43,269 nt of DNA. It comes from a virus. The stretch is from UHGV virus genome UHGV-0027971; one strand, 5' to 3'. Position numbers and translations under genes: made by a program. Positions 4,949-36,804 of this stretch are shown in pieces; positions within the stretch are counted from its first letter, which is position 1; the number at the start of each line of letters is the position of its first letter. The notes under the pieces are model-generated. The model had not been told where the DNA came from. It ran no database searches and worked only from the letters and a program-made list of their open reading frames with translations.

Positions 4949-7245
4949 GACGTCACCGTAAAATTAAATAATAATGAATCGGTAGAAGAAGCCAGCCATA
5001 AAGACTGAGTTTTATTTTTCGGAGCTTCAATCAAATCCATTGATGCTTTTGCAGAGCAATAAAACCCGTAATCTCCTGTTGCAGCTATTGAAATCTCAAC
5101 CAGATGATTAGCATTTATTGCAGCTGTGATAGAGGGAGTTGACGTAGTTTCAGCATCCCAGTTATCCCATTCGTGAGATAGTATCCTTGCGCCGGTAGCC
5201 CAGTTGTCATTGACAGTACCATTTGAGATCAGCACCACAGCCCTGATGCGAGAATATTTTTGCGTCGTCCTTGTTCTGAGGAACGCTGTAACATTAACAA
5301 TTGCAGCGTTAAATCCACCGACAACACCGAAAGTCCAGAGAGTTTTACTACTGTTGACCCCGGCACCGGATGCGACAGGAGGAAAATCTGTGGTTATTTT
5401 CCCAATACTCCCTGTATTAATGATTCTTGGGGCATATTTAAATTCGGCAGGGACCACGGTATTAGCCCCAAGAACAAATGCCATGGATGATGCCCTTAAT
5501 TTGTTGCCTGTTACGTTAGGATGGGTATCATCATTCATCCACCCTTTTGATACGGCGTTTTCATAAGTACCTAGGGTCTGCCTGTCATCAAAATAGTAAT
5601 AGCCATTATTCAAAGCAAAATTTCTCCTGGCTATCCTGTAACTCTCTACGGCACTAGCATATTTGGGGTTAGTCGTCTTACTTGTTTCCCCTGGTTCAAC
5701 TATTAGCGCAACCGACGATGATGGTTTTATCATATTGGTATATGTTATCAAATCCGCCTTAAACTGCTCAACAGTTCTCCCTTGCCCCATATCATTAGTT
5801 CCCGCATTAATAACAACTAAAGCAGGGTTTAATGCAGCTTTCCATTTCGAAATAAAAACAGAGTCCTGCGATACAAACTCATCAAGTCGCCTGCCGCCAC
5901 GTGCAATTGTTGCTGTTCTTATACCTCTTGGGTTTGGTGTATATATAAAATCAAGTGCAAAAATAACTACATTACCGGTAATTTCTGAAAGTGTGATGCT
6001 GGAGGCATTTGTCGCATCTCTGAATACAGAAATAACGCCAAGATCCAAATCGGCGTTACTGTTAACGCTAGTCACAGTGCCGCCTGCCGTTATATTAAAG
6101 CTACCACCACCTGATTGTTTTAAATAATACAAATTACACTTATCCCATGGCAATTTGGGATCAGCGCCAGCTTGCTCAGTACCACTTGCTGAAGGCCATT
6201 GAATACCTCTACCAGCAGGAGCATATTTTGCTGGGGTAGCATTCATCGGTAAATCTCGTAAACTGGTGAATGTTCCTAAAGCATAAAATGCCTGATCACC
6301 TTCTATCTGAAAGGCCGCTTGATCAAAAGCATAAAATCCAGGTCCACCATAATCAAATGATGAATGCAGAAGTATTTTCAGGTATCTAACATAATTGGTG
6401 TTACCTGCCCCCTCATTAAGTGAATCAATGCCAAACTGAATCAGGCCTCCGGTTTGTAAAAGATAAGCAAGTGGATTATTTTTAACATATGAATTTACAT
6501 CCATTCGATCTAGTGTTGCTCCTACCGTTGTTTCATGAAACCCTGACAAGTTAGCGCCTGTAGGTTTTGCAAGTTGGATCAACACATCAGAAGCGCTACC
6601 AGGAATGGCAGGGACAGGATTTGGTTCACCATAATCGTTGAAAGTGAAAACTGTATTTTTCCTTACGTCCACAGAAGGAAGAAAAGATATTTCATCTTCA
6701 GGTACTCTCACCGTCCTTTTAAACAAATTCTCAGAATGCTGATTATTACTTGAATCTCCGGCATCTACATAATTCTTTGTTGCAGCATCCTGTGCCTGTG
6801 ACGGGTCACGCAGATTACGAATGCGGTTGTTGAGTGCGTCGTAATAGCTCGCGATGAACGACGGCTTACGCAGCGCCAGGCGGAGAAAGCTGAAGCACTG
6901 CTGGATAAGCATGGTCAGCTTGTCGAATGCATCCTCATGCACCTCTGCGAAAAATTTCCCCTGGTTACGCAGATCAGTCTCCTGGGTAACAGGCAAGTCA
7001 CGTGAGATAGAGATTTGCCATCCGTTGGCCAGAGGTGACATCAACACAACGCTCCCACCTGAATAGCTTCCCGCCCCGGTAACTGAGTAATCGGTATCTA
7101 AAGTCAGAACTGTAATATTTTCGTTAAGGTCAGCGACCTGGACAGTGAGATCTGACTTCTTGAAGATGCGAAACGTGTACGGGAAAGATGTGGTAACGCC
7201 GTTCCCTGTGTAGTCGTTATGGTCGACTTCGGTTGAGACCGTCAT
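4945..7245 (-). CDS. tailspike/tail fibre protein with SGNH (GDSL-like) hydrolase domain
   Basis: 766 aa; N-terminus MTVSTEVDHNDYTGNGVTTSFPYTFRIFKKSDLTV typical of podovirus tail-fibre head-binding domains; C-terminal part has SGNH-like blocks (VVINAGTNDMG, NDDTHPN). Confidence 0.8.
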   Translation of the reverse strand: MTVSTEVDHNDYTGNGVTTSFPYTFRIFKKSDLTVQVADLNENITVLTLDTDYSVTGAGSYSGGSVVLMSPLANGWQISISRDLPVTQETDLRNQGKFFAEVHEDAFDKLTMLIQQCFSFLRLALRKPSFIASYYDALNNRIRNLRDPSQAQDAATKNYVDAGDSSNNQHSENLFKRTVRVPEDEISFLPSVDVRKNTVFTFNDYGEPNPVPAIPGSASDVLIQLAKPTGANLSGFHETTVGATLDRMDVNSYVKNNPLAYLLQTGGLIQFGIDSLNEGAGNTNYVRYLKILLHSSFDYGGPGFYAFDQAAFQIEGDQAFYALGTFTSLRDLPMNATPAKYAPAGRGIQWPSASGTEQAGADPKLPWDKCNLYYLKQSGGGSFNITAGGTVTSVNSNADLDLGVISVFRDATNASSITLSEITGNVVIFALDFIYTPNPRGIRTATIARGGRRLDEFVSQDSVFISKWKAALNPALVVINAGTNDMGQGRTVEQFKADLITYTNMIKPSSSVALIVEPGETSKTTNPKYASAVESYRIARRNFALNNGYYYFDDRQTLGTYENAVSKGWMNDDTHPNVTGNKLRASSMAFVLGANTVVPAEFKYAPRIINTGSIGKITTDFPPVASGAGVNSSKTLWTFGVVGGFNAAIVNVTAFLRTRTTQKYSRIRAVVLISNGTVNDNWATGARILSHEWDNWDAETTSTPSITAAINANHLVEISIAATGDYGFYCSAKASMDLIEAPKNKTQSLWLASSTDSLLFNFTVTS

Positions 7246-7330
7246 GTTAAATCTCCAGATAGTCGCAGCACCCGTTGCGCCGCATATCCGGTTATTTTAT
7301 TACCTGAAAAACCACATATGGATAGATAGA

Positions 7331-7346
7331 CTGTGAATTCGAACAG
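7331..7346 (+). promoter_or_regulatory. candidate second SOS-box-like site (CTGTGAATTCGAACAG)
   Basis: CTGT-N8-ACAG spacing, but the spacer is not the usual AT-rich sequence. Confidence 0.3.
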
Positions 7347-7401
7347 ATATTACCTTTCAGGTAATTTTCAAAACGTGCTGGATAGCAAATAAATTATTTG
7401 A

Positions 7402-7421
7402 TACTGTATAAATATACAGTT
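7402..7421 (+). promoter_or_regulatory. LexA (SOS) box TACTGTATAAATATACAGTT overlapping a promoter (-35 TTGATA at 7398..7403)
   Basis: Near-consensus CTGT-N8-ACAG with AT-rich spacer, 20 bp upstream of the 7441 start. Confidence 0.75.
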
Positions 7422-7440
7422 ATTGCATGGAGAAGATAAG

Positions 7441-7698
7441 ATGCAGCAGTATCACTATCCACTGGAAGAGGGATTTACCGAAAGGATTCACACGCCGGGA
7501 GGCGTCAGGTCACTGGTGGAGGGATCGCACTTGATGAAATTACTCCGGGATCTCGATAAGGATGGATTTAATGTCGATGGCCCACTTGCCGAACTGACTG
7601 CACTGATTAACTACGTCACCAGCTCACAGATGTCTATGCGGGATCTGCAAACACATCTCGACTATTGTGCCGAACAATTACGAAAACAAACCCGGTAA
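7441..7698 (+). CDS. SOS-regulated small protein, stand-alone homolog of the shared antirepressor C-terminal module (Tum-like role inferred)
   Basis: 85 aa from ATG 7441 (RBS GGAGAAG; track start 7423 is a forced TTG). Aligns with the C-termini of the proteins at 9345, 11074 and 41064 (IH.P.GV..L.E.S.LM.LL...DG..V.G..AELT...Y......RD.QTH..Y). Confidence 0.6.
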   Translation: MQQYHYPLEEGFTERIHTPGGVRSLVEGSHLMKLLRDLDKDGFNVDGPLAELTALINYVTSSQMSMRDLQTHLDYCAEQLRKQTR

Positions 7699-7705
7699 AT
7701 TTAAA

Positions 7706-7721
7706 GGCCGCAAGAGCGGCC
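7706..7721. terminator. hairpin terminator between convergent genes
   Basis: GGCCGC-aaga-GCGGCC followed by a T-rich tract; between the 7441..7698 (+) and 7721..8449 (-) 3' ends. Confidence 0.55.
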
Positions 7722-8449
7722 TATCGTTTCGCTTTGTGCTCATCCCAGCACGTTTTGCACCATGCCATTAAACCATCCGCATTTTGATTATTAGGGTAAA
7801 AGCTGGTTCGTTTTCTGCGGACATTACAAATTGGGCACCACTTCATATGGCGTGTATTCTTTGGGCCATCGAGACACCTTGCACACCACTTAGTCAATCC
7901 ATCTGGATTTTTTGACGATTTCCTGAATTTTTCATATGGAAGGTTTATTCTGCATCGCAAGCACTGCTTGCTACCACTTGAAACTCTGTTAGCTGATTCT
8001 TCTTTTGGCGGCGATACAGAAGGTATTCTTGCTGGCTCTGATACTGCCTGAGGTGCTTTTTTAGATGACTGAGACGATGTGTCATCACCAGGGAATCTTC
8101 CATGATATGCCGGACGCGTTGACACTCCAGGTGGAAGCTCTGCTGTAAATGGCTTTGGCTGAATCAGTTGCCTCTCTTTTGCTAACTCCTGCTGTTTATA
8201 ATATGTCTGGATTACCGCACTATCATAAGCAGGAGGTGCGGAAATATTAGGCGCATTACCTCCAGTTTTTTGAAACTGAGTAGAGGTGTGTTCTATCACC
8301 TGTGTACGATTAATCGTTATCTCCCCATCTTCGGTCTTTATCGTTTTGTTATGATTTACGACCGTACGATCAGAGATCTTAGTCTTGTTCTGGTTGATAA
8401 CGTAAATAATCACCGCAACCACACCAACAACTATCCAGAAAACTTCCAT
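7721..8449 (-). CDS. hypothetical membrane-anchored protein with two C-terminal zinc-ribbon-like motifs
   Basis: 242 aa; N-terminal hydrophobic helix, low-complexity S/P-rich linker, then CLRC..(x20)..WCARC and CPIC..(x20)..WCKTC. Confidence 0.5.
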   Translation of the reverse strand: MEVFWIVVGVVAVIIYVINQNKTKISDRTVVNHNKTIKTEDGEITINRTQVIEHTSTQFQKTGGNAPNISAPPAYDSAVIQTYYKQQELAKERQLIQPKPFTAELPPGVSTRPAYHGRFPGDDTSSQSSKKAPQAVSEPARIPSVSPPKEESANRVSSGSKQCLRCRINLPYEKFRKSSKNPDGLTKWCARCLDGPKNTRHMKWCPICNVRRKRTSFYPNNQNADGLMAWCKTCWDEHKAKR

Positions 8450-8604
8450 TGCTTTTCCTCACAATAACATTACCTTAAAGGTAATATCTTGCTTTCAGGT
8501 GATCAAGCATTAAACTCCATCAACCAAATACGGTTGATTTTGATATTTATTCTCGCTTATCATTACCTTTGCGGTAAATTTACATCGCACTCCTCTTGTG
8601 CCAT

Positions 8605-8690
8605 AGTAATCAGGCACTGGCAAAATCCAGTGCCGGGATTGGCGTCCCGGATTACTAGTAGGCGCATACCACGCCAGACGTGGTTTTTTT
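8605..8690 (+). ncRNA. candidate structured small RNA or leader element ending in a rho-independent terminator
   Basis: Outer stem TAGTAATC/GATTACTA enclosing hairpins GGCACTGG-caaaat-CCAGTGCC and CCGGGA-ttggcg-TCCCGG, then terminator CCACG-ccaga-CGTGG + T7 (8669..8690). Function unknown. Confidence 0.3.
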
Positions 8691-8845
8691 ATGCGTATAG
8701 CACAGTCATATCCGAATTATGGTGGGCTGGGCAGGGGCACCGAAAGGTGCGCCGGTACCTACTAGGCCGGTACGCCAACCTTGTCCAGTTCACCACCAGC
8801 AATTGGCGTTGCGGTGGTAGGTAACTTACTAGTAGAGGTATCGCT

Positions 8846-9352
8846 ATGCCAGGCCAAAAAATCTCAAACGACGATCTGTATTGGTTAATTTCTAATTCTC
8901 CACTCCTTCTTATGCTAAGGCAAGAAAGTGCACCACTGGTCAGTGAATTGATTAGCTGTAGAAATAGAATGTGGGATGAAGGGGCAGATTTAGATACCAA
9001 TTTGTTTGATCATCTTATGCAACTAGCAGTCGATAACAAGGCAAAACTACGCTCTGAATACAACGCTTATCCAGAAATAGCAAAATACCTTAACGCTGAA
9101 ATACTTGGTGGACCAGGTCAACCAGACCTAAAAACAAAAGATGGTTACCCTGTTGAGGTGAAGGTAGATACTTTTTCTCCTTCAGCATTAAAACAATTAT
9201 TAAGGTATATGGATGCTTCTGGCGCAGATTTTGGTTTTGCTTGTGCAAAAACTCTTTCTGTAAAACTCCCTGAAAACATAAAGTTCATCCAGTTAGATTA
9301 TAAAGATAATTGCTATTTCGTCGTGAAAGATGGAGGCAATGAAAATGCGTAA
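8846..9352 (+). CDS. hypothetical protein (168 aa), possible PD-(D/E)xK-like motif
   Basis: ORF with RBS GAGG; sequence KDGYPVEVKVD resembles a D..E.K nuclease core but this is a weak by-eye guess; AT-rich. Confidence 0.5.
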   Translation: MPGQKISNDDLYWLISNSPLLLMLRQESAPLVSELISCRNRMWDEGADLDTNLFDHLMQLAVDNKAKLRSEYNAYPEIAKYLNAEILGGPGQPDLKTKDGYPVEVKVDTFSPSALKQLLRYMDASGADFGFACAKTLSVKLPENIKFIQLDYKDNCYFVVKDGGNENA

Positions 9353-10064
9353 TATAGCTATTGATAAGTTGCCGATAACAACTCATTGCAACATCCCTGT
9401 AATGACTACAGAAATGCTTGCTGATTTGTATGACACAGAACCCAAACTGATTCGTCAAAACTATCAACGAAATGCAGATCGATTCATTGAGGGAAAACAT
9501 TGTTTCAAGCTGATAGGCGAAGAATTACGAGCATTTAAGAACGAGTCCTCTCAAAGAGGTTTGCTTAATATTGCACCAAAAGTAAGTCATCTTTTCTTAT
9601 GGACCGCTCGCGGTGCAGCACGACATGCGAAAATTCTTGAGACTGAAAAAGCGTGGGAGGTCTTCGAAAAACTGGAAGATTGCTACTTCGACAGAAAACC
9701 CGCAAATGTCAGTGGAGATGTTCGTCTCTCAGGTGGAGCTGATTTATCAAAGGCCACTCAGGTAATTGAAAAATTCATGCCCGCCATTATGGAGGCGATC
9801 AAGCTGGAAGACAAAAAAGAATACAGCGCCCCACTGAAGCCCGGCTACCGCAGCCTGATTCACTCGCCGTCGGGTGTTCTCGGCCTGACGGAGCACTCAC
9901 TGCTGATGAATCTGCTGAATCAGTTGCAGGAAGACGGGCACGACGTATCGGGCGCGGCGGCGGAACTGACCACCATGTTCTGCTACATCGTCGGTGTGAG
10001 TAAATGCCTGCGTGATATCCAGACGCACGCGGAGTACATCAACGACAAGGCAGGGTTCTTCTGA
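9345..10064 (+). CDS. antirepressor-like protein (ORF6N-type N-terminal domain + shared C-terminal module)
   Basis: Start taken at ATG 9345, 8 nt after GGAGG (track start 9330); C-terminal ~95 aa near-identical to those of 11074..12012 and 41064..41720. Confidence 0.7.
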   Translation: MRNIAIDKLPITTHCNIPVMTTEMLADLYDTEPKLIRQNYQRNADRFIEGKHCFKLIGEELRAFKNESSQRGLLNIAPKVSHLFLWTARGAARHAKILETEKAWEVFEKLEDCYFDRKPANVSGDVRLSGGADLSKATQVIEKFMPAIMEAIKLEDKKEYSAPLKPGYRSLIHSPSGVLGLTEHSLLMNLLNQLQEDGHDVSGAAAELTTMFCYIVGVSKCLRDIQTHAEYINDKAGFF

Positions 10065-10184
10065 CAGAACGGCGGCACAGGGATGTGCAAAACGGAACTA
10101 TCGTGACATGTCACAGGCCGCTTTCGCGGCCTTGTTTTTAACGAATGCCACCGCCGCCTGGGCGGGAATCCGCAGACACAAAAA

Positions 10185-10201
10185 AGCCCGCGGCGCGGGC
10201 T
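10185..10201 (-). terminator. rho-independent terminator downstream of the 10209..10844 gene
   Basis: Hairpin AGCCCGC-ggc-GCGGGCT with A-run 10177..10185 on plus (U-run on minus); sequence resembles the terminator at 2660..2692. Confidence 0.5.
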
Positions 10202-10208
10202 TAAAGAA

Positions 10209-10844
10209 CTATTTTATTGGCAGCTTATGCTTTGAAATTATGGCCAATCTGTTTTGGAAGTTTTCCGCATCACCCCACAACCAGGTTTCACCTTTCTCAA
10301 GTTCTTCCTCGTTATTCATCTCTATAAGTTCGCATGTCATCATGTCGTAACCATAGAGATGGAGGCCAAGTTCCAGTGCGTCATACATGCGAGCCTGCCA
10401 GAACGACATGCCTTCATGAGTCTGGTTGCGATCAGACACGATGATATCGTACCGTTCCAAGAGGTAGTTCATGAAGATGATGCCAGCGAAATCATGAAGC
10501 ACAGCACGATGCTTAGGCTTCTGGGTTCTCCATACCAATATCTGCGTGACAGGACGGCAGTTAAGATAGCTGTCAGGCTGGATAATGACACGATTGTAAT
10601 ACACTACCTCTTCGGTGAGGTCATTTATCAATGACAGTTCAAAGTGCGCCTGTGGAATCTCGCCTTTCTTACGATCGTCTACACGGACAACGCGGTATCC
10701 AGGAGCCAGAGAAACGCCTTTGACATCAGATGTGACATCGTTGCCGTTCACTAACTCTGAATACAGAGCGCGGTTGTCTGGAGTTTCGTTCAGATGAGCG
10801 AAAACCTCAGTTACCTTTGCCGGATTCAGCAGTTGTTGTGGCAT
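10209..10844 (-). CDS. hypothetical protein (211 aa), accessory gene
   Basis: Clean ORF with its own terminator and two upstream TTACC-N5-GGTAA-type sites (10886..10900, 10986..11000); no family recognised. Confidence 0.5.
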   Translation of the reverse strand: MPQQLLNPAKVTEVFAHLNETPDNRALYSELVNGNDVTSDVKGVSLAPGYRVVRVDDRKKGEIPQAHFELSLINDLTEEVVYYNRVIIQPDSYLNCRPVTQILVWRTQKPKHRAVLHDFAGIIFMNYLLERYDIIVSDRNQTHEGMSFWQARMYDALELGLHLYGYDMMTCELIEMNNEEELEKGETWLWGDAENFQNRLAIISKHKLPIK

Positions 10845-11073
10845 ACATCACCTCATAATATATAGATGCTTCTTTAAGCGGGATTTACCATTAGGGTAAA
10901 TGAACTATCCGAATGTTAAACGCCTTCGTACTCGTCAAATTTTCTCATGTGGGCTCCTCCTGTATCGGTGCCTAATCGCTATGGATCACCCGTGAGGTAA
11001 TAGTACGCTATTCACCCCCAGTCTGCAATCTGTACAGAATTATTTAAAGGCACATCCCTGTGCCGCCGTTCTG

Positions 11074-12012
11074 TCAGAAGAATCCTGCCTTGTCGTTGAT
11101 GTACTCCGCGTGGGTCTGGATATCACGCAGGCATTTGCTCACACCAACGATGTAGCAGAACATGGTGGTCAGCTCCGCCGCCGCGCCCGATACATCGTGC
11201 CCGTCTTCCTGCAACTGGTTCAGCAAATTCATCAGCAGTGAGTTCTCCGTCAGGCCGAGAACACCAGACGGCGAGTGAATCAGGCTGCGGTAGCCGGGCT
11301 TCAGCGGATAACCATAACATTTTGTCTGTGTTTTAATTGCCTCACGAAGCGCATCTAACATCTTGACTGCCACTTCATCATTCTCTGATGCAGATCCAGC
11401 AGGGAGATACTCCCCTTCAAGCGGAACCCGAGCAACAAGAGACAACGCTTCGGCGAATTGATCTTCATCAATTTCTTTGTACGAACAGCCAAAATGAGAT
11501 TTCAGTGACGACCACATGGTGATCATCGCCTTAGCCTGTTTTTCTTTTGGCAGAGACTGACCGCGACTCATGACGAGTTGTTTAATGGCTTCCTGCTGTT
11601 CAGTGGTGATTTTACCCGGCAACGCCTTTTTAGCTTTGCGTGGGTTAACTACATGGCCTTTAGTCCAGTAATCGTAGAGCACATCGTCACACTCTTCCTG
11701 ATACTGGATTACCTTGTCGCGGATTTCAGGGCGTACTTTGTTTGGACTGATGCTGTTCAACCAAGCTGCCAATTTTCGTAAAGCCATACAAATCATGGCT
11801 TGCACCCCACCGGCAGAAGGTATGGTGATTTCCACCATACCCTTCGAGAAGCGTTGAGAAATCTTCTTATGTTGAGATTTCCAGTCTAGCCCCATTCCCT
11901 CAACGATAGGTTTCATTGGGGTATACGGTTCACCGTTGTGATTGACAACATAAAGCTCTGCGCCGTGGAATGGCACGTTGATAGTAGATACCGCTGTTGC
12001 TATACTCGTCAT
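11074..12012 (-). CDS. ant: antirepressor (AntA-type N-terminal domain + shared C-terminal module)
   Basis: 312 aa; N-terminal region resembles AntA/P22 Ant-type domains; directly downstream of the arc-like gene as in P22 immI. Confidence 0.8.
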   Translation of the reverse strand: MTSIATAVSTINVPFHGAELYVVNHNGEPYTPMKPIVEGMGLDWKSQHKKISQRFSKGMVEITIPSAGGVQAMICMALRKLAAWLNSISPNKVRPEIRDKVIQYQEECDDVLYDYWTKGHVVNPRKAKKALPGKITTEQQEAIKQLVMSRGQSLPKEKQAKAMITMWSSLKSHFGCSYKEIDEDQFAEALSLVARVPLEGEYLPAGSASENDEVAVKMLDALREAIKTQTKCYGYPLKPGYRSLIHSPSGVLGLTENSLLMNLLNQLQEDGHDVSGAAAELTTMFCYIVGVSKCLRDIQTHAEYINDKAGFF

Positions 12013-12087
12013 GTCGTTAATTCCTATACGTAGTTTTACGATACTGAAGCCCTGACGGTCTGGCCACCGTTGGGCTTCGCTGTTTTA
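12013..12087 (+). ncRNA. candidate sar-like antisense RNA opposite the ant ribosome-binding region
   Basis: Plus-strand promoter inside the ant 5' end (-35 TTGATA 11978..11983, 17-bp spacer, -10 TATACT 12001..12006) and plus-strand terminator in the arc-ant gap (GAAGCCC..ACGGT-ctggcc-ACCGT..GGGCTTC + GCTGTTTTA, 12046..12087); predicted ~75 nt. Confidence 0.45.
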
Positions 12088-12252
12088 TGCCACGCTATTC
12101 TTCTCACCAGTGAGTCCATACACTTTCCTCAGCTGATAGATAATCTCTGTATTGAACTTTCGGCATTCTTTTTCGCCATTTCTTTCAATAGCTAACTTCA
12201 CATCGTCCGGAAAACGAACTCGTCGTTGACACATCTCTTTTGCTTTTTGCAT
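12085..12252 (-). CDS. arc: Arc-like ribbon-helix-helix repressor
   Basis: 55 aa from ATG 12252 with strong RBS AAGGAG (track start 12288 is a forced TTG); size and beta-strand region (RRVRFPDDVKLAIERNGE) fit P22 Arc. Confidence 0.7.
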   Translation of the reverse strand: MQKAKEMCQRRVRFPDDVKLAIERNGEKECRKFNTEIIYQLRKVYGLTGEKNSVA

Positions 12253-12266
12253 TTCATATCTCCTTA

Positions 12267-12281
12267 GCCCCACGGTGGGGC
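12267..12281. promoter_or_regulatory. Mnt-operator-like palindrome GCCCCACGGTGGGGC upstream of the arc-like gene
   Basis: Perfect 15-bp palindrome with CCACGGTGG core as I recall for the P22 mnt operator; sits just upstream of the arc RBS. Confidence 0.6.
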
Positions 12282-12372
12282 AAAACAATTGTCACACCGT
12301 GCGTCATTGATGTCAAGCACACGGTGAGGCATACTTCAATCATTGCAAGTAACTCAATATTTGGTGAAGAAC

Positions 12373-12804
12373 ATGAGCAGAGAAGATCCACAACTAAGGA
12401 TCAGACTTCCCGTTGAAGTAAAAGAAAAAATAGAAATTTCTGCAAAAGCCAATAAGCGATCAATGAACGCTGAAATAGTACAACGTCTTGACACCAGCTT
12501 TCTGAAAGATATTCATGAAGATGACGTAATTTCTGCTTATGAAGCAAAAATTATTGCAAACAATGCACGGCATGAAATATCAAATATTATTTTCAAAAGA
12601 ACCTTTAATGAAATTAATAAGAAAATAACACTTGGACATACAAGTTTTTATATAAACCTTAATGACCTTGAACTGGAATCACTTGCAGATAATGATTACC
12701 AGATCATCTTTGAAAAAACATTTAATAAGCTCAATGAACTAGGTTACATCATCTGTGAAAACTCATGGGATGCAGATGGTTTTGGAATTGAAATACCTGA
12801 ATAG
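12373..12804 (+). CDS. mnt: Mnt-like ribbon-helix-helix repressor with extended C-terminal region
   Basis: N-terminus MSREDPQLRIRLPVEVKEKIEISAKANKRSMNAEIVQRL matches my recollection of P22 Mnt (MARDDPHFNFRMPMEVREKLKFRAEANGRSMNSELLQIV); divergent from arc-ant; start taken at ATG 12373. Confidence 0.75.
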   Translation: MSREDPQLRIRLPVEVKEKIEISAKANKRSMNAEIVQRLDTSFLKDIHEDDVISAYEAKIIANNARHEISNIIFKRTFNEINKKITLGHTSFYINLNDLELESLADNDYQIIFEKTFNKLNELGYIICENSWDADGFGIEIPE

Positions 12805-12846
12805 GAAGAACAAAAGGCGTGTACATATTACACGTCTTTAATACAA

Positions 12847-13458
12847 TTGAAAAACGCCACATTACTGATGTATGTTACAACAAGGAGCGATATTTTGAAA
12901 ACCATATCTATATTAAAGGTTGCATTAGGCGTCGCTATTATTTTGACTCTCTCAATATTGTTTTATTTTTACCACAAAAAAAATGCTATTGCTCTTGATG
13001 GTCACGCGGCAAACTCATTTTTCTCAGAGTACATAGTGCCGCTATCAGGAAGCGGTATAACAAATAAATATACTGACTATGACATCAAATATGGAATTGA
13101 TGATGGGGAGACTATTGTATTACATGTAATCATTAAAAACCTAATGACAGTAAATAAAAATACAGACTTCAACGATAAAAATACAATACATCACAACAAC
13201 AGCAAAACATTAATTTCTTATAGTAGCAACATCTATACGGATAAATACCTAAAATACATCTCAGAAGATACAATAAAAGCAACCAGCGAAAAGTTAAAAA
13301 ACATATATTGTGCATCCGGCAGTTTTCACAAATTATCGCCGCAGGAGCGTTTATTCTACGAAGCAAGAAAACAACGTAAGTCAATAATATTACATTATTA
13401 TGCTGATTCAGGGGAGTCACTCATATTTAATATTGGGGTTTCCCCTGAATCATGCTAA
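12847..13458 (+). CDS. hypothetical membrane-anchored protein (203 aa), AT-rich accessory gene
   Basis: N-terminal hydrophobic helix (ILKVALGVAIILTLSILFYFY), N/K/Y-rich body; position next to mnt corresponds to sieA in P22-like maps (positional analogy only). Confidence 0.45.
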   Translation: MKNATLLMYVTTRSDILKTISILKVALGVAIILTLSILFYFYHKKNAIALDGHAANSFFSEYIVPLSGSGITNKYTDYDIKYGIDDGETIVLHVIIKNLMTVNKNTDFNDKNTIHHNNSKTLISYSSNIYTDKYLKYISEDTIKATSEKLKNIYCASGSFHKLSPQERLFYEARKQRKSIILHYYADSGESLIFNIGVSPESC

Positions 13459-13469
13459 AGGCGTTTAAC

Positions 13470-16400
13470 TCACCGCATCACCGGATCCACCTGGTTTATT
13501 AGTGGCGCAATCCAGAACAGGTTATTGCCTGGTATCAGAGTTCGGACATTATGCGCAATACGATCACCGGCATCACCATTCAACACTCCTGCGGTCACAT
13601 CAATGATGCTATCCGCAAGACCAAATGACGGTCCGAATAGAGATCCTACGAATCCACGACTGGCATACCTAGACTGTGTGCCAGTGCCAAATAAAGCCCC
13701 CAGCCCAACAGCACCACCAGTAGCCTTTTCAGCCATGTTGTTATATTCCATCAATGGCCCAAGAATACCGGATCTATCTATACCCTCAAGCACCAGCTTC
13801 TCTGGTGACCAGTCAACATTTTTCCCTTTCGATGCTTCTTTTAGCGCATAGACCAGTGAGCCAAGAGCAATCTGAAATGCAGTGCCATAATAAAATTGCG
13901 CAGTTCCCTCCTGTAACCCACCAAGTAGCGCACGGTTGTATGAAGCCGTTGTGAATGATTTAAACTGAAATATCGTTCGCCCCATTGGAGTACTCGCCCA
14001 TAAAGGTGTGTCACCAATACCGGGGGTGATGATAGTGTTATTAACGTCTTTCAGAACCGCTGACTGGAATACTCCGGCAACGTACTGATCGTCCCATTTA
14101 TCAAAGTTACCAATGTGCCATCCATCAATTACCTCACCATGTTTCTCGAACTCACTGCGAATACGCGCAGCCATATTGTCGTTGATACCGAGTTTTGCCA
14201 TGCGACGTGCAGAAAACGCACCGGACAAAATACCGTCTGACGTGAGCATTCCGTTCATGGATTTGTTTATGTCATTAAATCGATCCATGAGTGTCAGCTT
14301 GCCGAAGGCATCAGTAATTCGCTCCATTCCTGCTTCGACTGCTGTTGTCCTGGAAGAACTGTCAACAAGATCACCAATTGCACGAGAACGTGAATGTAGT
14401 ACAGCTTCCAATCCAATCCCCATCTTCAACATATCTTCTTTGCTGGCCTTAAATGCCGGTGATTGGGATATCTGAGAAGCATAGCCTTTCATGGTGTTAC
14501 GGAAACCATTAACCATAACCCCTCTGGCCAGATCTGGAATAGCTGATACTGTCATTCCACCGAGTTTGGTCGTGAAGTTCACATCCCGCAGAAAAGCGCC
14601 AGCACGAACAAAAAACGAAGACGGATCATCAGGCATCCCATATGTACCAACAAGACGATCGCGTAATGCTGTTATGTCTCTGAGATCATTTGCTCTTGAT
14701 TTTGAAAGTCTGGACTGTTCTTTCCGTAATTCCTTTTCGTACTTTCGCATTAATGAATCGAGTTTACCCTGAGGAACAACTTCACCATTGCTCTCATAAC
14801 GTGCTTTCAGATTTGCCACACTTTCGTCATATTTCGCCTTTATTTTTTCAGGCACTTCCCGTAACAGACTGTCATATTCGTCCTCAATTAATTGCAGACG
14901 CTCAGTCATAGTTCGTTTGCCAAATGTTCTCGTCAACTCAATTTCTGCTGCCGCTTCACGGATATGACGTTGCAGCACGTAATTCACATCACTTTCAAGA
15001 TAATCCCTGATAAGACTATCAGGAACATTTAATGTTCTTTCTTTCGTACTACCTGCGGCTTTTACAGAAAATACGCTGACAAAATCCTGTGGAACCTTAG
15101 CACCAGTAATTTTATTAATTACGATATCCGCTGCAATTTCAGCATCCTCAGGATCCAGTGTTTTATTTCCTCTCGACCACCAGTCAACCAAAATACGTCG
15201 AAATTTATCGCGTTCACTGATTATTTTTCCAACTTTATATATGCGTGGGAAATAGCTTGCCTGGCCTAATGCTTTCAGTTCTTCATCTGGCGGCAATAAA
15301 CCAAGCTTTTGCATTTCAACTTTCACCCGATTTAATACAGTTCGCATCGCCTGCGCCGTTTCCTGAACAACAGGATTAGCATGCACATCACCGCTTCGCA
15401 TAGCATTCCCAACCTGCTGACGAAATGAATCAAAACTCATGTCACCACCATCAGCTTTATACTTTGCGTATGCCTGTTTATTTCCGACAACAACAGCAGC
15501 TTCTTCACGCTGCCATCCACGTGTACGGGTTTCTACAGCTACCGGTGTTTCAATCCCCCTTTCATTTCCTTTAAGGGTGAAATTATTTTCGGCTAACTCC
15601 AGCGTTGTTTTTCGCACCGTCTTGGACGGAGACTCCATTAACCTTGTCAAAGGAGTAAGATAGCTCCCTGCTTTCCATGCAGCCTTTCCAACCCACCCAC
15701 CGGAAACAGGGGTTAAATCATCCAGAGTCGCTGTATCAATTTTCATAGCACCAACACTACCACCATCGGAAAGCGAAGCGGCAGCCCTGTCAGTCACTGA
15801 TGTAATGCTCATATTATCAAGAGCATCAGCAACCTCACGTGTGGCTGCAGCCCGGACGGATGGCGAAAGCGCAACACCAGCACTGGCAAACACGCCGCTC
15901 ATCATCGCACCCGCTGCAACGTGAGCGGCACTTTCACCCCATGAGCGTGTTATTTGCTGATTATTCAGTACAACCTCGCTTAATGCTGTACCGGCAGCAC
16001 CAATCGCAATCTGTGAGCCAATACGCGCCAGTGCCCCTCCTTGAGCACCGGGAATAAACATTGACGCAACAGTAACCGGATCCATTCCCGCAGCAATACT
16101 GGCAAGGGTTCCAACTACGCCAGCATCAGACAATAAACGTCTGTCTTCATTTTCATCATCTATCTGCTGCTTAATCCACGCCGTTTCCTCTGGCGATCGG
16201 GAATCTGCAAATTTCGCCCCCCAGTATTCATAACCGTGCAACTCATTTTTATCAGCATATGGGTTATAACCCTCGACCGGTTCAAACTGTCTGGCTGGGC
16301 GGAAAAAACCAGACAGAATATTGTTCTGTCGCATTGCAGCCCCCCATACGGAAGGCTCAGGTGGCAATGGCTCAGGATTAGCCCCTTCCGGAAGGGCAAC

Positions 16401-16484
16401 ATCAAACCCAGTTTGTTCCGGCAAAACATTACCTGACGGGATCAGTCCGTTATTAAGATCTTCAGCTTGTGCATAAACTGGCAT
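13470..16484 (-). CDS. internal virion/ejection protein (T7 gp16-position, 1004 aa)
   Basis: Very large ORF ending the virion operon after the gp14/gp15-like genes. Confidence 0.7.
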   Translation of the reverse strand: MPVYAQAEDLNNGLIPSGNVLPEQTGFDVALPEGANPEPLPPEPSVWGAAMRQNNILSGFFRPARQFEPVEGYNPYADKNELHGYEYWGAKFADSRSPEETAWIKQQIDDENEDRRLLSDAGVVGTLASIAAGMDPVTVASMFIPGAQGGALARIGSQIAIGAAGTALSEVVLNNQQITRSWGESAAHVAAGAMMSGVFASAGVALSPSVRAAATREVADALDNMSITSVTDRAAASLSDGGSVGAMKIDTATLDDLTPVSGGWVGKAAWKAGSYLTPLTRLMESPSKTVRKTTLELAENNFTLKGNERGIETPVAVETRTRGWQREEAAVVVGNKQAYAKYKADGGDMSFDSFRQQVGNAMRSGDVHANPVVQETAQAMRTVLNRVKVEMQKLGLLPPDEELKALGQASYFPRIYKVGKIISERDKFRRILVDWWSRGNKTLDPEDAEIAADIVINKITGAKVPQDFVSVFSVKAAGSTKERTLNVPDSLIRDYLESDVNYVLQRHIREAAAEIELTRTFGKRTMTERLQLIEDEYDSLLREVPEKIKAKYDESVANLKARYESNGEVVPQGKLDSLMRKYEKELRKEQSRLSKSRANDLRDITALRDRLVGTYGMPDDPSSFFVRAGAFLRDVNFTTKLGGMTVSAIPDLARGVMVNGFRNTMKGYASQISQSPAFKASKEDMLKMGIGLEAVLHSRSRAIGDLVDSSSRTTAVEAGMERITDAFGKLTLMDRFNDINKSMNGMLTSDGILSGAFSARRMAKLGINDNMAARIRSEFEKHGEVIDGWHIGNFDKWDDQYVAGVFQSAVLKDVNNTIITPGIGDTPLWASTPMGRTIFQFKSFTTASYNRALLGGLQEGTAQFYYGTAFQIALGSLVYALKEASKGKNVDWSPEKLVLEGIDRSGILGPLMEYNNMAEKATGGAVGLGALFGTGTQSRYASRGFVGSLFGPSFGLADSIIDVTAGVLNGDAGDRIAHNVRTLIPGNNLFWIAPLINQVDPVMR

Positions 16485-19201
16485 TATTTAGATCCCCACG
16501 AAAAGTAATCTTTAAATTTGTCCATACGTTCGTTATGCAGGCGCTGATACTGCTCATCCAGAGCGCGATGCTTGTCTTTGAAGTTTCGTATAGCCTGTCC
16601 ACGCATAATTTCTTCCTGCTCGTACTGCTCCCGTTCCTGCTGCATTTTCTTATAAGGTTCCCAATCTTCTAGTGATGGTTCCCAACGCATAGGACGCCCA
16701 TGTTTGTTATAAAACGGCTGGACCCGATCGATGCCATTTTCATCCTTAGTTCTTACCATAATGGCGTAATCACCATTACGGGGTGTTAACACGTCAGGGG
16801 TTATGAATAATTCTCCATTAATACGACTCTCAGGGGTTTTTGTCTCAACTACAGGAGCATTACCTGACGTGATCCCAAGCAACGTCGGACTGGTTGTTAT
16901 AATCTCTTTGCGCTCACCGTACATCAGCCGTTCTTTTTCAGCTTTCCACTGCGCCGCCTGCCAGCCTGACGGCCCATATTGATAAAGCGCCTCCGGTGCA
17001 TATTTCATAAACTGCGCTTCTCCGTTAACCTCGCTGATACTCCAAGTGCGGGCTATCTGCTGGTTGGTCATTTGCTTCGCTACGTCAGCGTTACCACCAG
17101 CAACGCGGTAGTTAATGTCATACATCGTCTGATAGTCATTACGGAATCTAGCTGCTTCCGGCGTCTGGTCATCCGCAGACGGATCCCAACGGAACCACTG
17201 CGCCATATTGCTGACAGCAGAATTCATCGCCTTGCTGCGATCATTTTTGTACTCTTTTGAACTCTGCGTTGATGCCAATTGAGCTTTAAGTGCATCGGTC
17301 TGGTTGTACGTAAGGTTCTGCGCCTGCTCGATAGCCGCATCAGCAGACATGCCAGAATCAGTTAGTTGCTTAACAGTCAGATAAAAACCCTGCATATCCT
17401 TCGGCATATTTCCAATAGATGCATTGTCTGTTTCATATAACCGACTAAACACTTCCGCCGCATTTTTAACCACTTCCTGATTGCTGGATCGGGATACTGC
17501 TGAAAGCTGCGTGATGACCTGCGAAGGCATTATGCCAGTCTGAGCCACAAGCCGAACAACCCCATCATGAGTGGAGACATCATTAATACGAAAGTTCTGC
17601 GCCATTTCTGTGTAATCAGCAGCTTTCTGCATTGACTTGTTGCTTGGGTCTAATTTTTCACCTATTGTCAGCGCCTCATTGAATCTGCGTGAATCCCGTT
17701 GCGCCTGAATTGCTTCATTTGATCTCTGAAGCAATGCAGACAATTTTCCGTAAGCATCGAGTTTTAACGCATAGTGAGGATCGTTAACCTCAGGCTTCAC
17801 TTTCTGCATTTCTTCTTGCTGCTGAGAAGGAGGCAAATACTGAATTGCCTGGAATATTCTCGCGTTATCAATCGCTATATCCAGTTGATTGATTATTTTA
17901 TCTGCGTTTTTTCCATACCCCCTGATGATGGTCTCCTGAGCCGGTATATAATCTGGAACCTCACCGTTATATAGCTGGGCCATGGTGTTATTAATAGCTG
18001 GCTCAAGCTGTTCTAATATTAACTTCCTTTGCTTTTCTATCTGACTATTAGCAAGGTTATCTATTTGATAAATAGTCAGTGGATCCATTCCAGTTTTATT
18101 TTTTCTATATCGGGAAAGCCACCCTTGTGTTTCTGATGGAAGATTTCGGATAAATTCTTCTTCTGATATTTCACCTTTACGTGGATCACCGACTTTGGCG
18201 ATCAGTTTATCCACGTTACCCATCCCCCAGTTATATGCTGCTCCGGTCAATATTTCTGAGCCGTACTTACCATACAGTTGATTTACATAGTCACTGGCAA
18301 GCATTTCATGCTGTTGTTCGTCCGTAGGGTTGTATTCAACGCCACGTTTGGCCGCCAGTTCTTTCCCTGTGCCCGGCATTAACTGGTATTTCCCCTGGGC
18401 CCTCTCTCCAGAAGATGTTTTCGGTCCTTCAAGAATACTACCATCAGGATTAAAATGACGATCACCTGATTCAACAAGGCGTATGGCACGCATGTCCATG
18501 CCTCCAGAATCATTTTTCTGAAACTGACCATTTAACCATCCTTCCGGATTAGCAGCGGCATAATTCTTCGCCCGCATTTCTGTGGCACTGCGATCATCAC
18601 TTTCTATTTCTTCCAGAATGCGTTCTTGTGACCATCCCCTGGCTGCTCCATATCTGGCAATGGCTACCATTCTGGAATTTCTGGCTAAAGTGGCAGTTTG
18701 CGGGTCATTCCAGGCATCCGCTTCATTTTGTATCCATAATTTTCTCGTTGCCTGATATTGCTCATCTTCATAGGCATTTGTCTGCCCTATCTCATGTCTG
18801 AGAACTCCAGTACTGAACTGAATTTTCTGTGTTCTGGCTTGTTGCAAAAACATATTTCTTGCTGCTTCATCAGTCAATGAAGCAGCTATTTCTTCCACAT
18901 CCTGATCAAATCCAGATATGTACTCTTGCCCCTTACCAATCGCATTTTTGCCTTGTTGTGCATAAAAACCGGTTTGAGGGTTATAAAGACGTTCATTGCT
19001 GCGCTGATTAAGCTGAAGGATGGCATCCTGAGACAATGCAACATTCGCTTTCTGCCTGGCTTCACCATATGCCACCGCATACTGATCTGCGACATTCGCC
19101 AGCACCTGACCTGCTTGAGGAACATCGAAGGTTTGAAAACCACCGGTTTGCACACCACGACTTTGCACCTGGCGTCCGGATGTAGTAGGAACAACAGGCA
19201 T
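16484..19201 (-). CDS. internal virion/ejection protein with lytic transglycosylase (SLT) domain
   Basis: 905 aa; SLT-like motifs LVESGDR, GKYQLMPGTG, AAYNWGMGNV. Confidence 0.8.
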   Translation of the reverse strand: MPVVPTTSGRQVQSRGVQTGGFQTFDVPQAGQVLANVADQYAVAYGEARQKANVALSQDAILQLNQRSNERLYNPQTGFYAQQGKNAIGKGQEYISGFDQDVEEIAASLTDEAARNMFLQQARTQKIQFSTGVLRHEIGQTNAYEDEQYQATRKLWIQNEADAWNDPQTATLARNSRMVAIARYGAARGWSQERILEEIESDDRSATEMRAKNYAAANPEGWLNGQFQKNDSGGMDMRAIRLVESGDRHFNPDGSILEGPKTSSGERAQGKYQLMPGTGKELAAKRGVEYNPTDEQQHEMLASDYVNQLYGKYGSEILTGAAYNWGMGNVDKLIAKVGDPRKGEISEEEFIRNLPSETQGWLSRYRKNKTGMDPLTIYQIDNLANSQIEKQRKLILEQLEPAINNTMAQLYNGEVPDYIPAQETIIRGYGKNADKIINQLDIAIDNARIFQAIQYLPPSQQQEEMQKVKPEVNDPHYALKLDAYGKLSALLQRSNEAIQAQRDSRRFNEALTIGEKLDPSNKSMQKAADYTEMAQNFRINDVSTHDGVVRLVAQTGIMPSQVITQLSAVSRSSNQEVVKNAAEVFSRLYETDNASIGNMPKDMQGFYLTVKQLTDSGMSADAAIEQAQNLTYNQTDALKAQLASTQSSKEYKNDRSKAMNSAVSNMAQWFRWDPSADDQTPEAARFRNDYQTMYDINYRVAGGNADVAKQMTNQQIARTWSISEVNGEAQFMKYAPEALYQYGPSGWQAAQWKAEKERLMYGERKEIITTSPTLLGITSGNAPVVETKTPESRINGELFITPDVLTPRNGDYAIMVRTKDENGIDRVQPFYNKHGRPMRWEPSLEDWEPYKKMQQEREQYEQEEIMRGQAIRNFKDKHRALDEQYQRLHNERMDKFKDYFSWGSK

Positions 19202-19767
19202 CAGTAACCTCCTATTTTGAATCGGGAGTCAGAATTCATAAAACCTGAGTTAGATAACATTGGCGTGTTTCCTTGCTTACTAATCGGATTGATACTTCCG
19301 CCACCCAACTTATATGCACCGTATGCTTTTAGTGGTGCCGTTAACAAAGTGCTGGTCATCGATGATTTAGCAGCCGACTGAGCAGCAGCCCCCTGTGCCT
19401 GAGCATTCATTCCCTGAACCTGATACCCATATGCCTCACGCTGAGCATTATTCACTGTCGTTAACGCATCAAGAGTGCCGAACTGAGCATTATCCGCAAA
19501 AACGTCAAGAGCTGTTCCGCTACTTAATTCCGCACCGGTAGCCCCCATAGTGGCCGCCGCAGTGCCTGAGCGTTGACGCATTTCACGACGACGCTGATCC
19601 GCTTCAATATTCCCACGATTGATTGAATCCTGTGCCTGAGCTTCAGCAATTTCAGCATTCCGATCAGCTATGGCTGACTGGTATTTTGCCTGCTTGCTCT
19701 GGCTGTACATTGACGCGGCTGTGGATGCCACTGTGACGGCAACCAAAGCGATGGCTGGGTTACACAT
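19201..19767 (-). CDS. internal virion protein (T7 gp14-position)
   Basis: 188 aa, A/Q-rich, N-terminal hydrophobic segment; call by synteny. Confidence 0.55.
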   Translation of the reverse strand: MCNPAIALVAVTVASTAASMYSQSKQAKYQSAIADRNAEIAEAQAQDSINRGNIEADQRRREMRQRSGTAAATMGATGAELSSGTALDVFADNAQFGTLDALTTVNNAQREAYGYQVQGMNAQAQGAAAQSAAKSSMTSTLLTAPLKAYGAYKLGGGSINPISKQGNTPMLSNSGFMNSDSRFKIGGY

Positions 19768-20231
19768 TATTTTCTCTCCATGTGAAATCTGTGGAAATTA
19801 AGACCAAGAGCACCATAAGGCGCGGCTTCTTCAAGCCTGAATCCAAGCCAGTGCAGCCATGCTTTGGCAACATGGTTTCGCTCGTCGACGTAGTTTTCCA
19901 GGCGCGGATAAACTGCCAGCATCTGCTGCAATACAGGGCGGCAGTGGCGAAGAAATGTCTTCTGATATTTTTCAATACGGCTGGTTCCTACCAGCCAGGG
20001 CGTACCATTGCCACCGATCATTGACGCCGGAGATACACCAAACATGGTTACCAGTTCTCCGTTCGCAAATCCTGACCAGGCCATAGTCGCAGTACGCAGA
20101 CCAACACGCAGCGCATCTTCGGTAGTCATCAGTGATACCGCATACAGTTCGTCAATATCAGCCTGACGAACATCCGGCAAAATCATCTGAAGATGCTCTT
20201 CGGTTGCGGGAATAATTTGAACATCGATCAT
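19767..20231 (-). CDS. virion protein (T7 gp13-position)
   Basis: 154 aa ORF between the tail tubular B-like and gp14-like genes; synteny only. Confidence 0.5.
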   Translation of the reverse strand: MIDVQIIPATEEHLQMILPDVRQADIDELYAVSLMTTEDALRVGLRTATMAWSGFANGELVTMFGVSPASMIGGNGTPWLVGTSRIEKYQKTFLRHCRPVLQQMLAVYPRLENYVDERNHVAKAWLHWLGFRLEEAAPYGALGLNFHRFHMERK

Positions 20232-23636: not shown

Positions 23637-23642
23637 TCCTGC

Positions 23643-23664
23643 AATAAAGGGGCCGAAGCCCCTT
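23643..23664 (-). terminator. intra-operon hairpin terminator after the capsid gene block
   Basis: AAGGGGC-cgaa-GCCCCTT with a T-rich tract on the minus strand; position analogous to T7 T-phi. Confidence 0.5.
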
Positions 23665-23680
23665 GTCGGATTCGCGAGGC

Positions 23681-36219: not shown

Positions 36220-36804
36220 ATGAAAAGTATCCAGGACGTCCGCAGGCAAAATCTCAACGACTTGATCGACCGTGAATTCAATGGTGTTCAGACGCGGATG
36301 GCAGAAAAACTTGGAACTCAGGCAAATCTGGTAAACCGCTGGGCTCTTGGCAAGAAGGTTATCGGCGACCAGGTTGCGCGAAAAATTGAAGCTGCCGCCA
36401 ATAAACCCCGTAACTGGCTTGATATCGATCGCTCGCTTTCTCAGGAAGGTTTTCAGCCTGTCGGCCCAAGCGACATTGGCCAGCTGGCGGCTCACAACCT
36501 GGAACGCTGGATGAGCGAAAGCCGCGACCTTTCAACACAGGGAAAACTTCACCGCGCATCCGGCGTAGCCCAGGTGACAATCAGCCGCCTGTTAAACAAT
36601 GAGGTCAGCGTTTCCATTTCCACCCTGGAGAATGTTGCATCCGCATTCGGGCGTCACGGCTATGAATTACTGATTCACCCGCACGACCCTGCGACCATCA
36701 ACTATGATCGCTCGCGCTACGCATTGTTACCCGAAACCGAGAAAGCAAAGATCGAAAGTTACATTGAATTTGTCATCAACCAGAACGAAAAAAGCAAACA
36801 ATAA
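36220..36804 (+). CDS. putative prophage repressor with two HTH domains and no recognisable autocleavage domain
   Basis: 194 aa; HTH-like segments VQTRMAEKLGTQANLVNRWALGKK and ASGVAQVTISRLLNNE; no LexA/CI-like peptidase motif seen; occupies the cI position. Confidence 0.6.
   Translation: MKSIQDVRRQNLNDLIDREFNGVQTRMAEKLGTQANLVNRWALGKKVIGDQVARKIEAAANKPRNWLDIDRSLSQEGFQPVGPSDIGQLAAHNLERWMSESRDLSTQGKLHRASGVAQVTISRLLNNEVSVSISTLENVASAFGRHGYELLIHPHDPATINYDRSRYALLPETEKAKIESYIEFVINQNEKSKQ

Follow-up and report, generated by a model that had tools for sequence, protein, structure and literature searches.

An exchangeable accessory slot between two convergent anti-repressor genes of an Escherichia coli prophage and its cargo gene for a GNAT-like protein

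Organization of the locus between the anti-repressor genes

UHGV virus genome UHGV-0027971, a stretch of 43,269 nucleotides (nt) hereafter termed the window, harbors two convergent anti-repressor (ant) genes that enclose a gene encoding a protein of 211 amino acids (aa) on the minus strand (10209..10844), referred to as the cargo gene. The left flanking gene (9330..10064, plus strand) encodes a protein featuring an ORF6N domain, and the right one (11074..12012, minus strand) a protein featuring a P22_AR_N domain. Both match anti-repressor PHROGs, and the C-terminal parts of both gene products match phrog_450 with E-values of approximately 1e-35 (8.7e-36 for the left gene). A repeat finder identified an inverted repeat at this locus with arms of 258 nt (9831-10088 and 11050-11307) that are 96% complementary and spaced by 961 nt, which is far beyond chance. 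The left arm (plus strand) and the right arm (minus strand) each consist of the last 78 codons of the respective ant gene, encoding the Ant module, and 24 further nt. The inverted repeat is thus the Ant module common to two convergent anti-repressor genes with different N-terminal domains, and it exists because these genes possess near-identical 3' ends. In total, 11 mismatches separate the arms; within the 78 codons, 10 of them are synonymous and one is non-synonymous (H to N). The guanine-cytosine (GC) content of the arms amounts to 59%, as compared to 42–46% for the portions of these genes that encode the N-terminal domains (42% for the left gene) and 47.8% for the window, which fits an Ant module moving on its own. 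The initial annotation of this DNA had described inverted repeats of about 260 bp, derived from the 3' module of the anti-repressor genes, on both sides of the cargo gene, and these are confirmed as the 258-nt arms; the segment that it delimited (10095-11041) exists as well, the stretch between the arms being slightly wider (10089-11049).

Junctions of this segment were defined by comparing pieces of the window with eight prophage loci of E. coli by BLAST. The DNA between the ant genes is a standard accessory slot composed of a conserved entry, a variable cargo and a conserved exit. Directly inside the left arm, 88 nt (10089-10176) recur beside the arms in prophages carrying quite different genes, and so do the 55–62 nt bordering the right arm on its inner side (10988-10995 to 11049). 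At every aligned junction, the entry comprises, in this order, the ant stop codon, the hairpin GGCACA-GGGA-TGTGCC, approximately 40 nt, the hexamer TACTAT and an operator. Similarity among prophages with different cargo stops at or shortly past this entry operator. In the window, the hairpin is located directly past the ant stop codon (11049..11064, minus strand) and is conserved in the aligned junctions; it is devoid of a proper T-run, was not called by the terminator scan and represents a weak terminator at best. The slot entry itself (10986..11049, minus strand) contains the -10-like TACTAT abutting the operator TTACCTCACGGGTGA (10986-11000), which deviates in one position from the motif TTACC-N5-GGTAA. 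A second operator representing an exact TTACC-N5-GGTAA site (10885..10899) is located 40 nt upstream of the cargo start codon. Between the two operators, the window possesses an insertion of about 100 nt as compared to locus L083, in which a single perfect operator precedes the ATG of the same 211-aa gene by 37 nt. This insertion contains a mini open reading frame (ORF) of 10 codons (MRKFDEYEGV; 10916..10948, minus strand) with an AGGAGG ribosome-binding site. The mini-ORF is identical in the DUF4760 cassette of locus L010, where a terminator-like hairpin follows, and is absent from L083.

Downstream of the cargo gene, the strong terminator T1 (10184..10202, minus strand), consisting of an 8-bp stem followed by a T-run, is located directly 3' of the stop codon. 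T1 is a conserved slot element and is also present behind other cargo. At all junctions, the exit is composed of T1, a gene encoding a 53-aa signal-peptide protein, the palindrome GTGACATGTCAC and the terminator belonging to the ant gene that runs into the slot. Most related prophages encode the intact 53-aa protein with its signal peptide (MKKAFAALFVLLSLVASTQA...) at the slot exit, for example at 4143..4304 in L002 and at 664..825 in L007. In the window and its closest relatives, a 192-nt deletion removed this gene except for its last 12 codons and stop codon, which persist as a remnant (10138..10176, minus strand). In the adjacent slot exit (10104..10132, plus strand), the palindrome precedes the plus-strand site 10115..10132, the intrinsic terminator that belongs to the incoming left ant gene. 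Since the operator at 10986-11000 and T1 are shared with prophages of other cargo, they are features of the slot and not private signals of the gene. The operators and the terminator that had initially been ascribed to the cargo gene are present, one of the two operators and the terminator being part of the slot.

Distribution of the slot and diversity of its cargo

To survey the slot, IMG/VR was screened with a 30-nt entry sequence, which was found in 98 contigs; the following figures refer to 80 loci of these. The same 30-mer yielded no match in species-representative genomes. An Ant arm is located upstream of the entry in all 80 loci, and a second, inverted arm is present downstream in 16 of them. 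Operator half-sites are kept in 80 of the 80 listed loci, with the spacer occurring in seven variants. The exit sequence follows 617–1708 nt past the entry in 62 of the 80 loci. Cargo between entry and exit of these 62 loci was grouped into 13 DNA clusters, corresponding to approximately 10 gene sets, and the main cargo ORFs (annotated or family-matched) are all oriented from entry to exit. A 59-aa protein in combination with a YafO-like protein represents the cargo of 14 loci, followed by DUF4760 (10 loci), a 193-aa protein (eight loci), the combination of a 108-aa and a 170-aa protein as in phage ZX5 (six loci), a set featuring a 125-aa protein (six loci) and a 288-aa protein (four loci). 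The 211-aa type is present in five loci in addition to the window, and a 210-aa type belonging to the same family, sharing 30% identity with the former, occupies the slot of seven loci.

Among complete E. coli genomes, 472 records match a query that spans the entry module and the arm and extends into the right-hand ant gene. Within an evenly spaced sample of these, the entry is joined to the arm in about two thirds of the cases, mostly behind Bro-N or Ant-type N-domains; the entry module is estimated to occur in approximately 300 of 5,426 complete E. coli genomes (about 6%). The window's cargo, considered at a coverage of at least 80%, is present in 13 of the 5,426 genomes, in line with the accessory gene initially proposed, and the full gene combination of the window in none of them. 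Moreover, the anti-repressor gene preceding this 211-aa gene varies: it encodes an ORF6N-Ant in SCU-125, a 218-aa Ant in IAI39 and 20AR0300, a Bro-N Ant in EC0026B and the P22_AR_N-Ant in the window.

Exchange and inversion of the segment

Comparison of loci L077 and L089 revealed flanks that are 97.7–99.9% identical and enclose different cargo, with the left break located inside the operator. This constitutes a clean swap. An exchangeable cassette, as envisaged in the initial annotation, is therefore documented by this pair as well as by the approximately 10 gene sets in 62 contigs. Furthermore, positions 9831-11307 of the window correspond to L077 4905-3430 on the opposite strand (98.0% identity), whereas positions 11050-14500 correspond to L077 4648-8098 (98.5%) and positions 7070-7705 to L077 2023-2660, both on the same strand. 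Window and L077 thus differ by a clean inversion with the same cargo and collinear outer flanks, the ends of which are located in the arms. Locus L002 likewise harbors the two ant genes of the window (N-terminal parts 99.8% and 96.6% identical), its entry and exit being located on opposite sides as compared to the window. The comparison of related prophages hence revealed both variable cargo and both orientations of the segment.

Loci L055 and L057 show a different pattern: they share the same cargo, and the N-domains of their anti-repressors appear to be exchanged relative to the outer backbone, which is not a simple inversion. This suggests an extra layer of recombination outside the arms.

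The cargo gene, its protein family and the predicted fold

The ORF at 10209..10844 starts with ATG and is preceded by a GAGGTG ribosome-binding site. It is a real gene. Homologs sharing 45–95% identity were found in Salmonella, Dickeya, Serratia, Klebsiella, Erwinia, Yersinia, Xenorhabdus and Photorhabdus, all belonging to the Enterobacterales. The deduced protein matches phrog_1349, to which no function is assigned, over its full length (E-value 2.9e-78; residues 1-209 on profile positions 10-210 of 210). A profile search against 1.84 billion representatives assigned at least 915 clusters at 50% identity to the family, nearly all of them comprising proteins of about 200 aa. No sequence match was obtained in Pfam, NCBIfam, PADLOC or PDB, and the PDB profile search returned nothing relevant; tblastn against 50,697 phage records resulted in a single distant match to phage LLS.

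The AlphaFold2 model of the 211-aa protein reached a predicted local distance difference test (pLDDT) value of 85.5 and a predicted template modelling (pTM) score of 0.82. The model shows the mixed alpha/beta architecture of the GNAT fold, and Foldseek against PDB agrees with this assignment. Foldseek against BFVD retrieved uncharacterised phage proteins of about 190 aa (E-values down to 3e-13) and proteins labelled NAT_SF. Among these fold relatives are proteins of jumbo phages such as the virulent phage Atu_ph07. The protein had at first been regarded as an orphan resembling nothing recognisable, a description that structure prediction, structural search and the size of the family contradict.

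Across 101 distant members of the family, residues Y82, Q101, W105, R106, D138, G145, W149, A156, Y164 and W190 are near-invariant. Pro2 is kept in 78 of the 101 members, and the first 13 residues are of low confidence in the model. The segment S-D-x2-Q-T-x2-G-x2-F-W can be read as resembling GNAT motif B. The cargo product is concluded to be a protein of GNAT fold that probably acts as an enzyme or binds a specific ligand. A compositionally foreign origin of the gene was considered and rejected, its GC content amounting to 46.7% in comparison to 47.8% for the window.

Elsewhere, family members are located after the lysis genes of the lambdoid phage LLS, inside the tail cluster of a Yersinia myovirus and beside injection genes of Dickeya and Salmonella prophages. 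Moreover, intact solitary copies are present in the chromosomes of Erwinia, Enterobacter and Photorhabdus. No conserved partner gene was found across these contexts, and the protein therefore works alone. The positions of family members elsewhere favour a moron-type, host-side role, whereas the operator and the jumbo-phage relatives favour a phage-side role.

Operators, transcript sources and silencing RNAs

The motif TTACC-N5-GGTAA occurs 19 times in the window as compared to 0.78 expected occurrences, and none of 100 shuffled sequences reached this number. In its extended form, the motif reads ATTACC-N5-GGTAAT. The epsilon15 genome paper reportedly describes an ATTACC...GGTAAT operator consensus. 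Paired sites flank a gene encoding a 194-aa HTH_3 repressor candidate (36220..36804), which is devoid of a self-cleavage domain. Operator-type sites are distributed over the whole prophage (e.g., 31600/31618, 33795/33857, 36102/36150 and 36862/36924) and are additionally found ahead of the ORF6N-Ant operon and of the genes for the small Ant protein and the small terminase; at the terminase gene, two copies are located immediately before the likely start. This scatter suggests direct repressor control of several operons, and the positions of the sites fit operators of the prophage repressor.

Transcription of the cargo gene may start at the slot entry, where the -10-like TACTAT is accompanied by a weak -35 element (TTGCAG, three of six positions). 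As an alternative source of transcripts, read-through from the upstream ant gene past the hairpin lacking a T-run has to be considered. Both ant operons facing the slot are equipped with silencing RNAs. Rfam models identified a C4 antisense RNA (8715-8800, 76.7 bits), isrK (8614-8690) and a1b1 target sites (8601-8653, plus strand) in a region (8601-8800) located ahead of the genes for a 168-aa protein and the ORF6N anti-repressor. This region is a P1/P7-type immI control module within an epsilon15-like prophage. On the opposite side, a sar antisense RNA (12014-12081, plus strand; 45.2 bits at a gathering threshold of 43) is located just upstream of the P22_AR_N anti-repressor start, beside an Arc-like 67-aa gene (12085..12288, minus strand) and a divergent 153-aa Arc-domain gene (12343..12804, plus strand). 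The sar RNA, the Arc-type genes and ant represent a P22-type mnt-arc-sar-ant module. Whether through the operator or through ant read-through, the cargo gene would rather probably be quiet in the stable lysogen and expressed upon infection or induction.

Two further modes of control were rejected. Regarding LexA, no CTGT-N8-ACAG box is present near the cargo gene, a perfect box being located at 7404-7419. Regarding a structured RNA leader, a z-score of -0.21 was obtained, and no Rfam family was found in 10845-11049.

Proposed role of the cargo and competing explanations

The whole account, comprising an exchangeable slot, swaps and flips driven by recombination and a repressor-gated GNAT-fold cargo, is assigned a probability of roughly 0.6. 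Of its components, the anatomy, the swap, the inversion and the fold are observed; the mechanism of recombination, the control by the repressor, the enzymatic activity and the biological role are proposed. The cargo would be replaced by homologous recombination within conserved sequence, namely the entry, the exit and the arms. Where two arms exist, recombination from arm to arm, possibly mediated by host RecA or phage recombination genes, would flip the whole segment and thereby change only which ant operon faces the upstream end of the cargo. The cargo is a module of one gene for a divergent protein of GNAT fold, putatively an acyl-/acetyl-transferase-like enzyme, that may act on a component of the host or of a rival phage. 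Its product would be made when the prophage repressor is absent, that is, in early infection or induction, and not in the quiet lysogen. Several results weigh against this account. The inverted repeat is dispensable for cargo exchange, given that 64 of the 80 loci are single-armed. None of the 101 family members matches a GNAT Pfam model at E <= 1, the Pfam scan yielding sporadic single matches to other models, and hhalign against one GNAT resulted in a probability of 0.2%. The Q/R-x-x-G-x-G/A pyrophosphate loop for coenzyme A (CoA) binding between beta4 and alpha3 is not conserved in these members: at the loop positions 120 and 121, mapped on the model by eye, A occurs in 42 and G in 10 of the 101 members, and no conserved glycine is present between R106 and F124. 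The acyl- or acetyltransferase activity is hence putative. Concerning its control, binding of the 194-aa helix-turn-helix protein to the operator sites is predicted from their position. The promoter scan called no promoter at the slot entry, a dedicated promoter is only weakly predicted, and a 7-nt indel shifts the -35 spacing in relatives. Finally, solitary chromosomal genes of the family fit a host-beneficial function better than one in the lytic cycle.

Both orientations of the segment are found in nature, as would be expected for a programmed inversion switch of the Hin/Gin/Cin or shufflon type that toggles the cargo. This explanation is nevertheless largely refuted and considered very improbable. 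Inspection of the ORFs of 7000-14500 revealed no recombinase gene within the segment or next to it, and in place of short crossover sites the arms are 258-nt coding repeats under purifying selection. Moreover, neither a promoter nor a coding sequence is switched by inversion, the protein sequences encoded by the arms differ in a single residue, and, with operator and terminator located within the flipped segment, a flip does not detach the cargo gene from them. The one-armed state of 64 of the 80 related loci likewise argues against a switch. The flip is therefore interpreted as a by-product of homologous recombination between coding repeats, and the invertible cassette initially proposed is retained with respect to its two orientations, no sign of programmed inversion having been observed. 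Regarding the function of the cargo, a defence or superinfection-exclusion moron, transcribed from the resting prophage and protecting the host, is the most serious competitor, albeit an unlikely one; exclusion or defence had been put forward as a candidate function in the initial annotation. It draws on the classic moron positions of family members in several phage types (LLS, the Yersinia myovirus and the Dickeya and Salmonella prophages), on the solitary intact copies in Erwinia, Enterobacter and Photorhabdus, on the YafO-like toxin and the membrane proteins among slot cargo elsewhere, and on the two divergent alleles in one slot, which suggest arms-race diversification. Against it, PADLOC (PADLOC-DB 2.0.0) returned no match for the 211-aa protein (E <= 0.1) or for 10 alternative cargo proteins, and related folds occur in jumbo phages such as Atu_ph07. 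The repressor-type operator between ant gene and cargo argues, if anything, for expression with the repressor off, and both slot-facing ant operons carry RNAs that silence in lysogeny, C4 and sar. A repressor-gated conflict enzyme holds a modest lead over the moron-type, host-side role.

GNAT-type toxins of toxin-antitoxin or abortive-infection modules such as TacT and AtaT acetylate aminoacyl-tRNA, and a YafO-like toxin fills the same slot elsewhere; in addition, one distant family member shows a weak Phd/YefM-like N-terminal match (E-value 0.0026). A toxin of this kind is improbable, since no antitoxin gene accompanies the cargo gene, upstream of which just the 10-codon mini-ORF missing in L083 is found. 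Eight other contexts revealed no consistent partner gene either, and the 211-aa protein is 30–50 residues longer than TacT and AtaT and lacks their CoA motif. Non-conservation of the pyrophosphate loop would be compatible with a non-catalytic GNAT-like binding module, namely a ligand sensor, for which the C-terminal domain of ICL2 that binds acetyl-CoA provides a model, or an inhibitor clamping a host protein. This explanation appears doubtful, less so than that of a toxin, in view of near-invariant polar residues (Y82, Q101, R106, D138 and Y164) that look more like an active site, and that could also line a binding pocket. Returning to the repressor-gated enzyme, a farther-reaching and tentative version of it would regard the slot as a standardised, repressor-gated dock for fast-evolving conflict genes and the GNAT-like family as a new class of phage acyltransferase chemically disabling a component of host immunity or a protein of a rival phage. 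This version is supported by the two alleles of 30% identity filling about one fifth of the slots, the at least 915 clusters of the family and its fold relatives in jumbo phages.

Prophage setting and neighboring genes

Based on sequence identity, the window is a TL-2011b/phiV10-like (Uetakevirus-related) E. coli prophage. Its structural region (13470-24000) shares 98.5% identity with Escherichia phage TL-2011b and, in part, 98% identity with phiV10 and ZX5 of the genus Uetakevirus. TL-2011b features the same layout with two convergent ant genes; its slot is occupied by genes for a 59-aa protein, a YafO-like toxin and a 53-aa protein, in an orientation opposite to that of the window. In Uetakevirus ZX5, overexpression of a protein composed of Bro-N and an Ant module pushes the phage to lytic growth, characterizing it as an anti-repressor (PMC9782041).

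Apart from the two flanking genes, the window encodes a third, stand-alone Ant module, represented by a 91-aa ORF (7423..7698) matching phrog_450 with an E-value of 4e-48. It shares about 40% protein identity with the modules of the arms, the DNA sequences not being alike. Two exact CTGT-N8-ACAG boxes (7331-7346 and 7404-7419) precede this gene, and the latter is a perfect, textbook LexA box (CTGTATAAATATACAG). These boxes point to SOS-triggered induction via the small anti-repressor. A similar system connecting SOS and a small anti-repressor has reportedly been described for phage SPC32H.

The minus-strand gene 7721..8449, flanked by the small Ant gene and the C4 RNA region, encodes a 242-aa protein (phrog_6762). 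Its N-terminus is transmembrane-like, and two CxxC zinc-ribbon repeats at the C-terminus match endonuclease VII, HNH and Lar-like PHROGs. Furthermore, a gene of very low GC content (32.8%) is located at 12847..13458 (plus strand) between the Arc-like gene and the gene encoding a 1004-aa virion protein. In the 203-aa product, the N-terminal segment is hydrophobic, and PADLOC yielded a weak TIR-like (ThsB) match (E-value 0.0058); the position of the gene roughly corresponds to that of sieA in P22.

Relation to known systems and significance

Antiviral hotspots of P2 and P4 (PMC9122126) and the morons of lambdoid phages likewise consist of variable genes or small operons between conserved phage genes, where, as in the slot described here, a terminator and a control signal, in the present case an operator with at most a weakly predicted promoter, bracket cargo that differs among near-identical prophages. 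Unlike in these hotspots, the flanks are formed by the C-terminal module of anti-repressors, a repressor-type operator and a fixed terminator, and represent inverted repeats in one fifth of the loci, so that the slot can flip. Moreover, no cargo tested here matches a known defence family.

Control modules known from immI of P22 (mnt-arc-sar-ant) and of P1/P7 (c4-icd-ant) are both present in the window and flank the slot. In contrast to those phages, a single prophage here contains both modules in facing orientation with an accessory slot in between, and the Ant proteins share the epsilon15/phiV10-type C-terminal module. Systems such as Hin, Gin/Cin/Pin and the shufflons also involve segments bounded by inverted repeats and occurring in both orientations; here, by contrast, no invertase was seen, the arms are long and coding, and a flip switches neither a promoter nor a coding sequence. 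The 'boundary sequences' of mosaic lambdoid and P22-like phages, annotated for instance beside ant in phage CUS-3, are similarly short conserved junctions at which recombination shuffles neighboring genes. The junctions in question differ from them in consisting of an operator, a terminator and Ant-module coding sequence, and in that exchange is documented by isogenic pairs. Regarding the protein, members of the GNAT superfamily such as NatD/Naa40, Hat1 and AAC(2')-Ia share the fold, the 211-aa family being distinguished by the lack of a GNAT hidden Markov model match and of the Q/R-x-x-G-x-G/A loop. The acetyltransferase anti-CRISPR AcrVA5 belongs to the same superfamily. Literature searches on the slot and on the protein family found no description of either.

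In kind, the locus is another prophage accessory-gene hotspot, featuring a tidy architecture and cargo from an uncharacterised GNAT-like family. Hotspots of this type have been productive sources of new defence and counter-defence genes. The slot is recognisable by its 30-nt entry sequence, the operator and the fixed terminator, and holds approximately 10 uncharacterised gene sets, among which the GNAT-like family is the commonest uncharacterised occupant. Moreover, it provides a natural example of how a domain common to two convergent genes forms an inverted repeat that shuffles and flips the intervening DNA.

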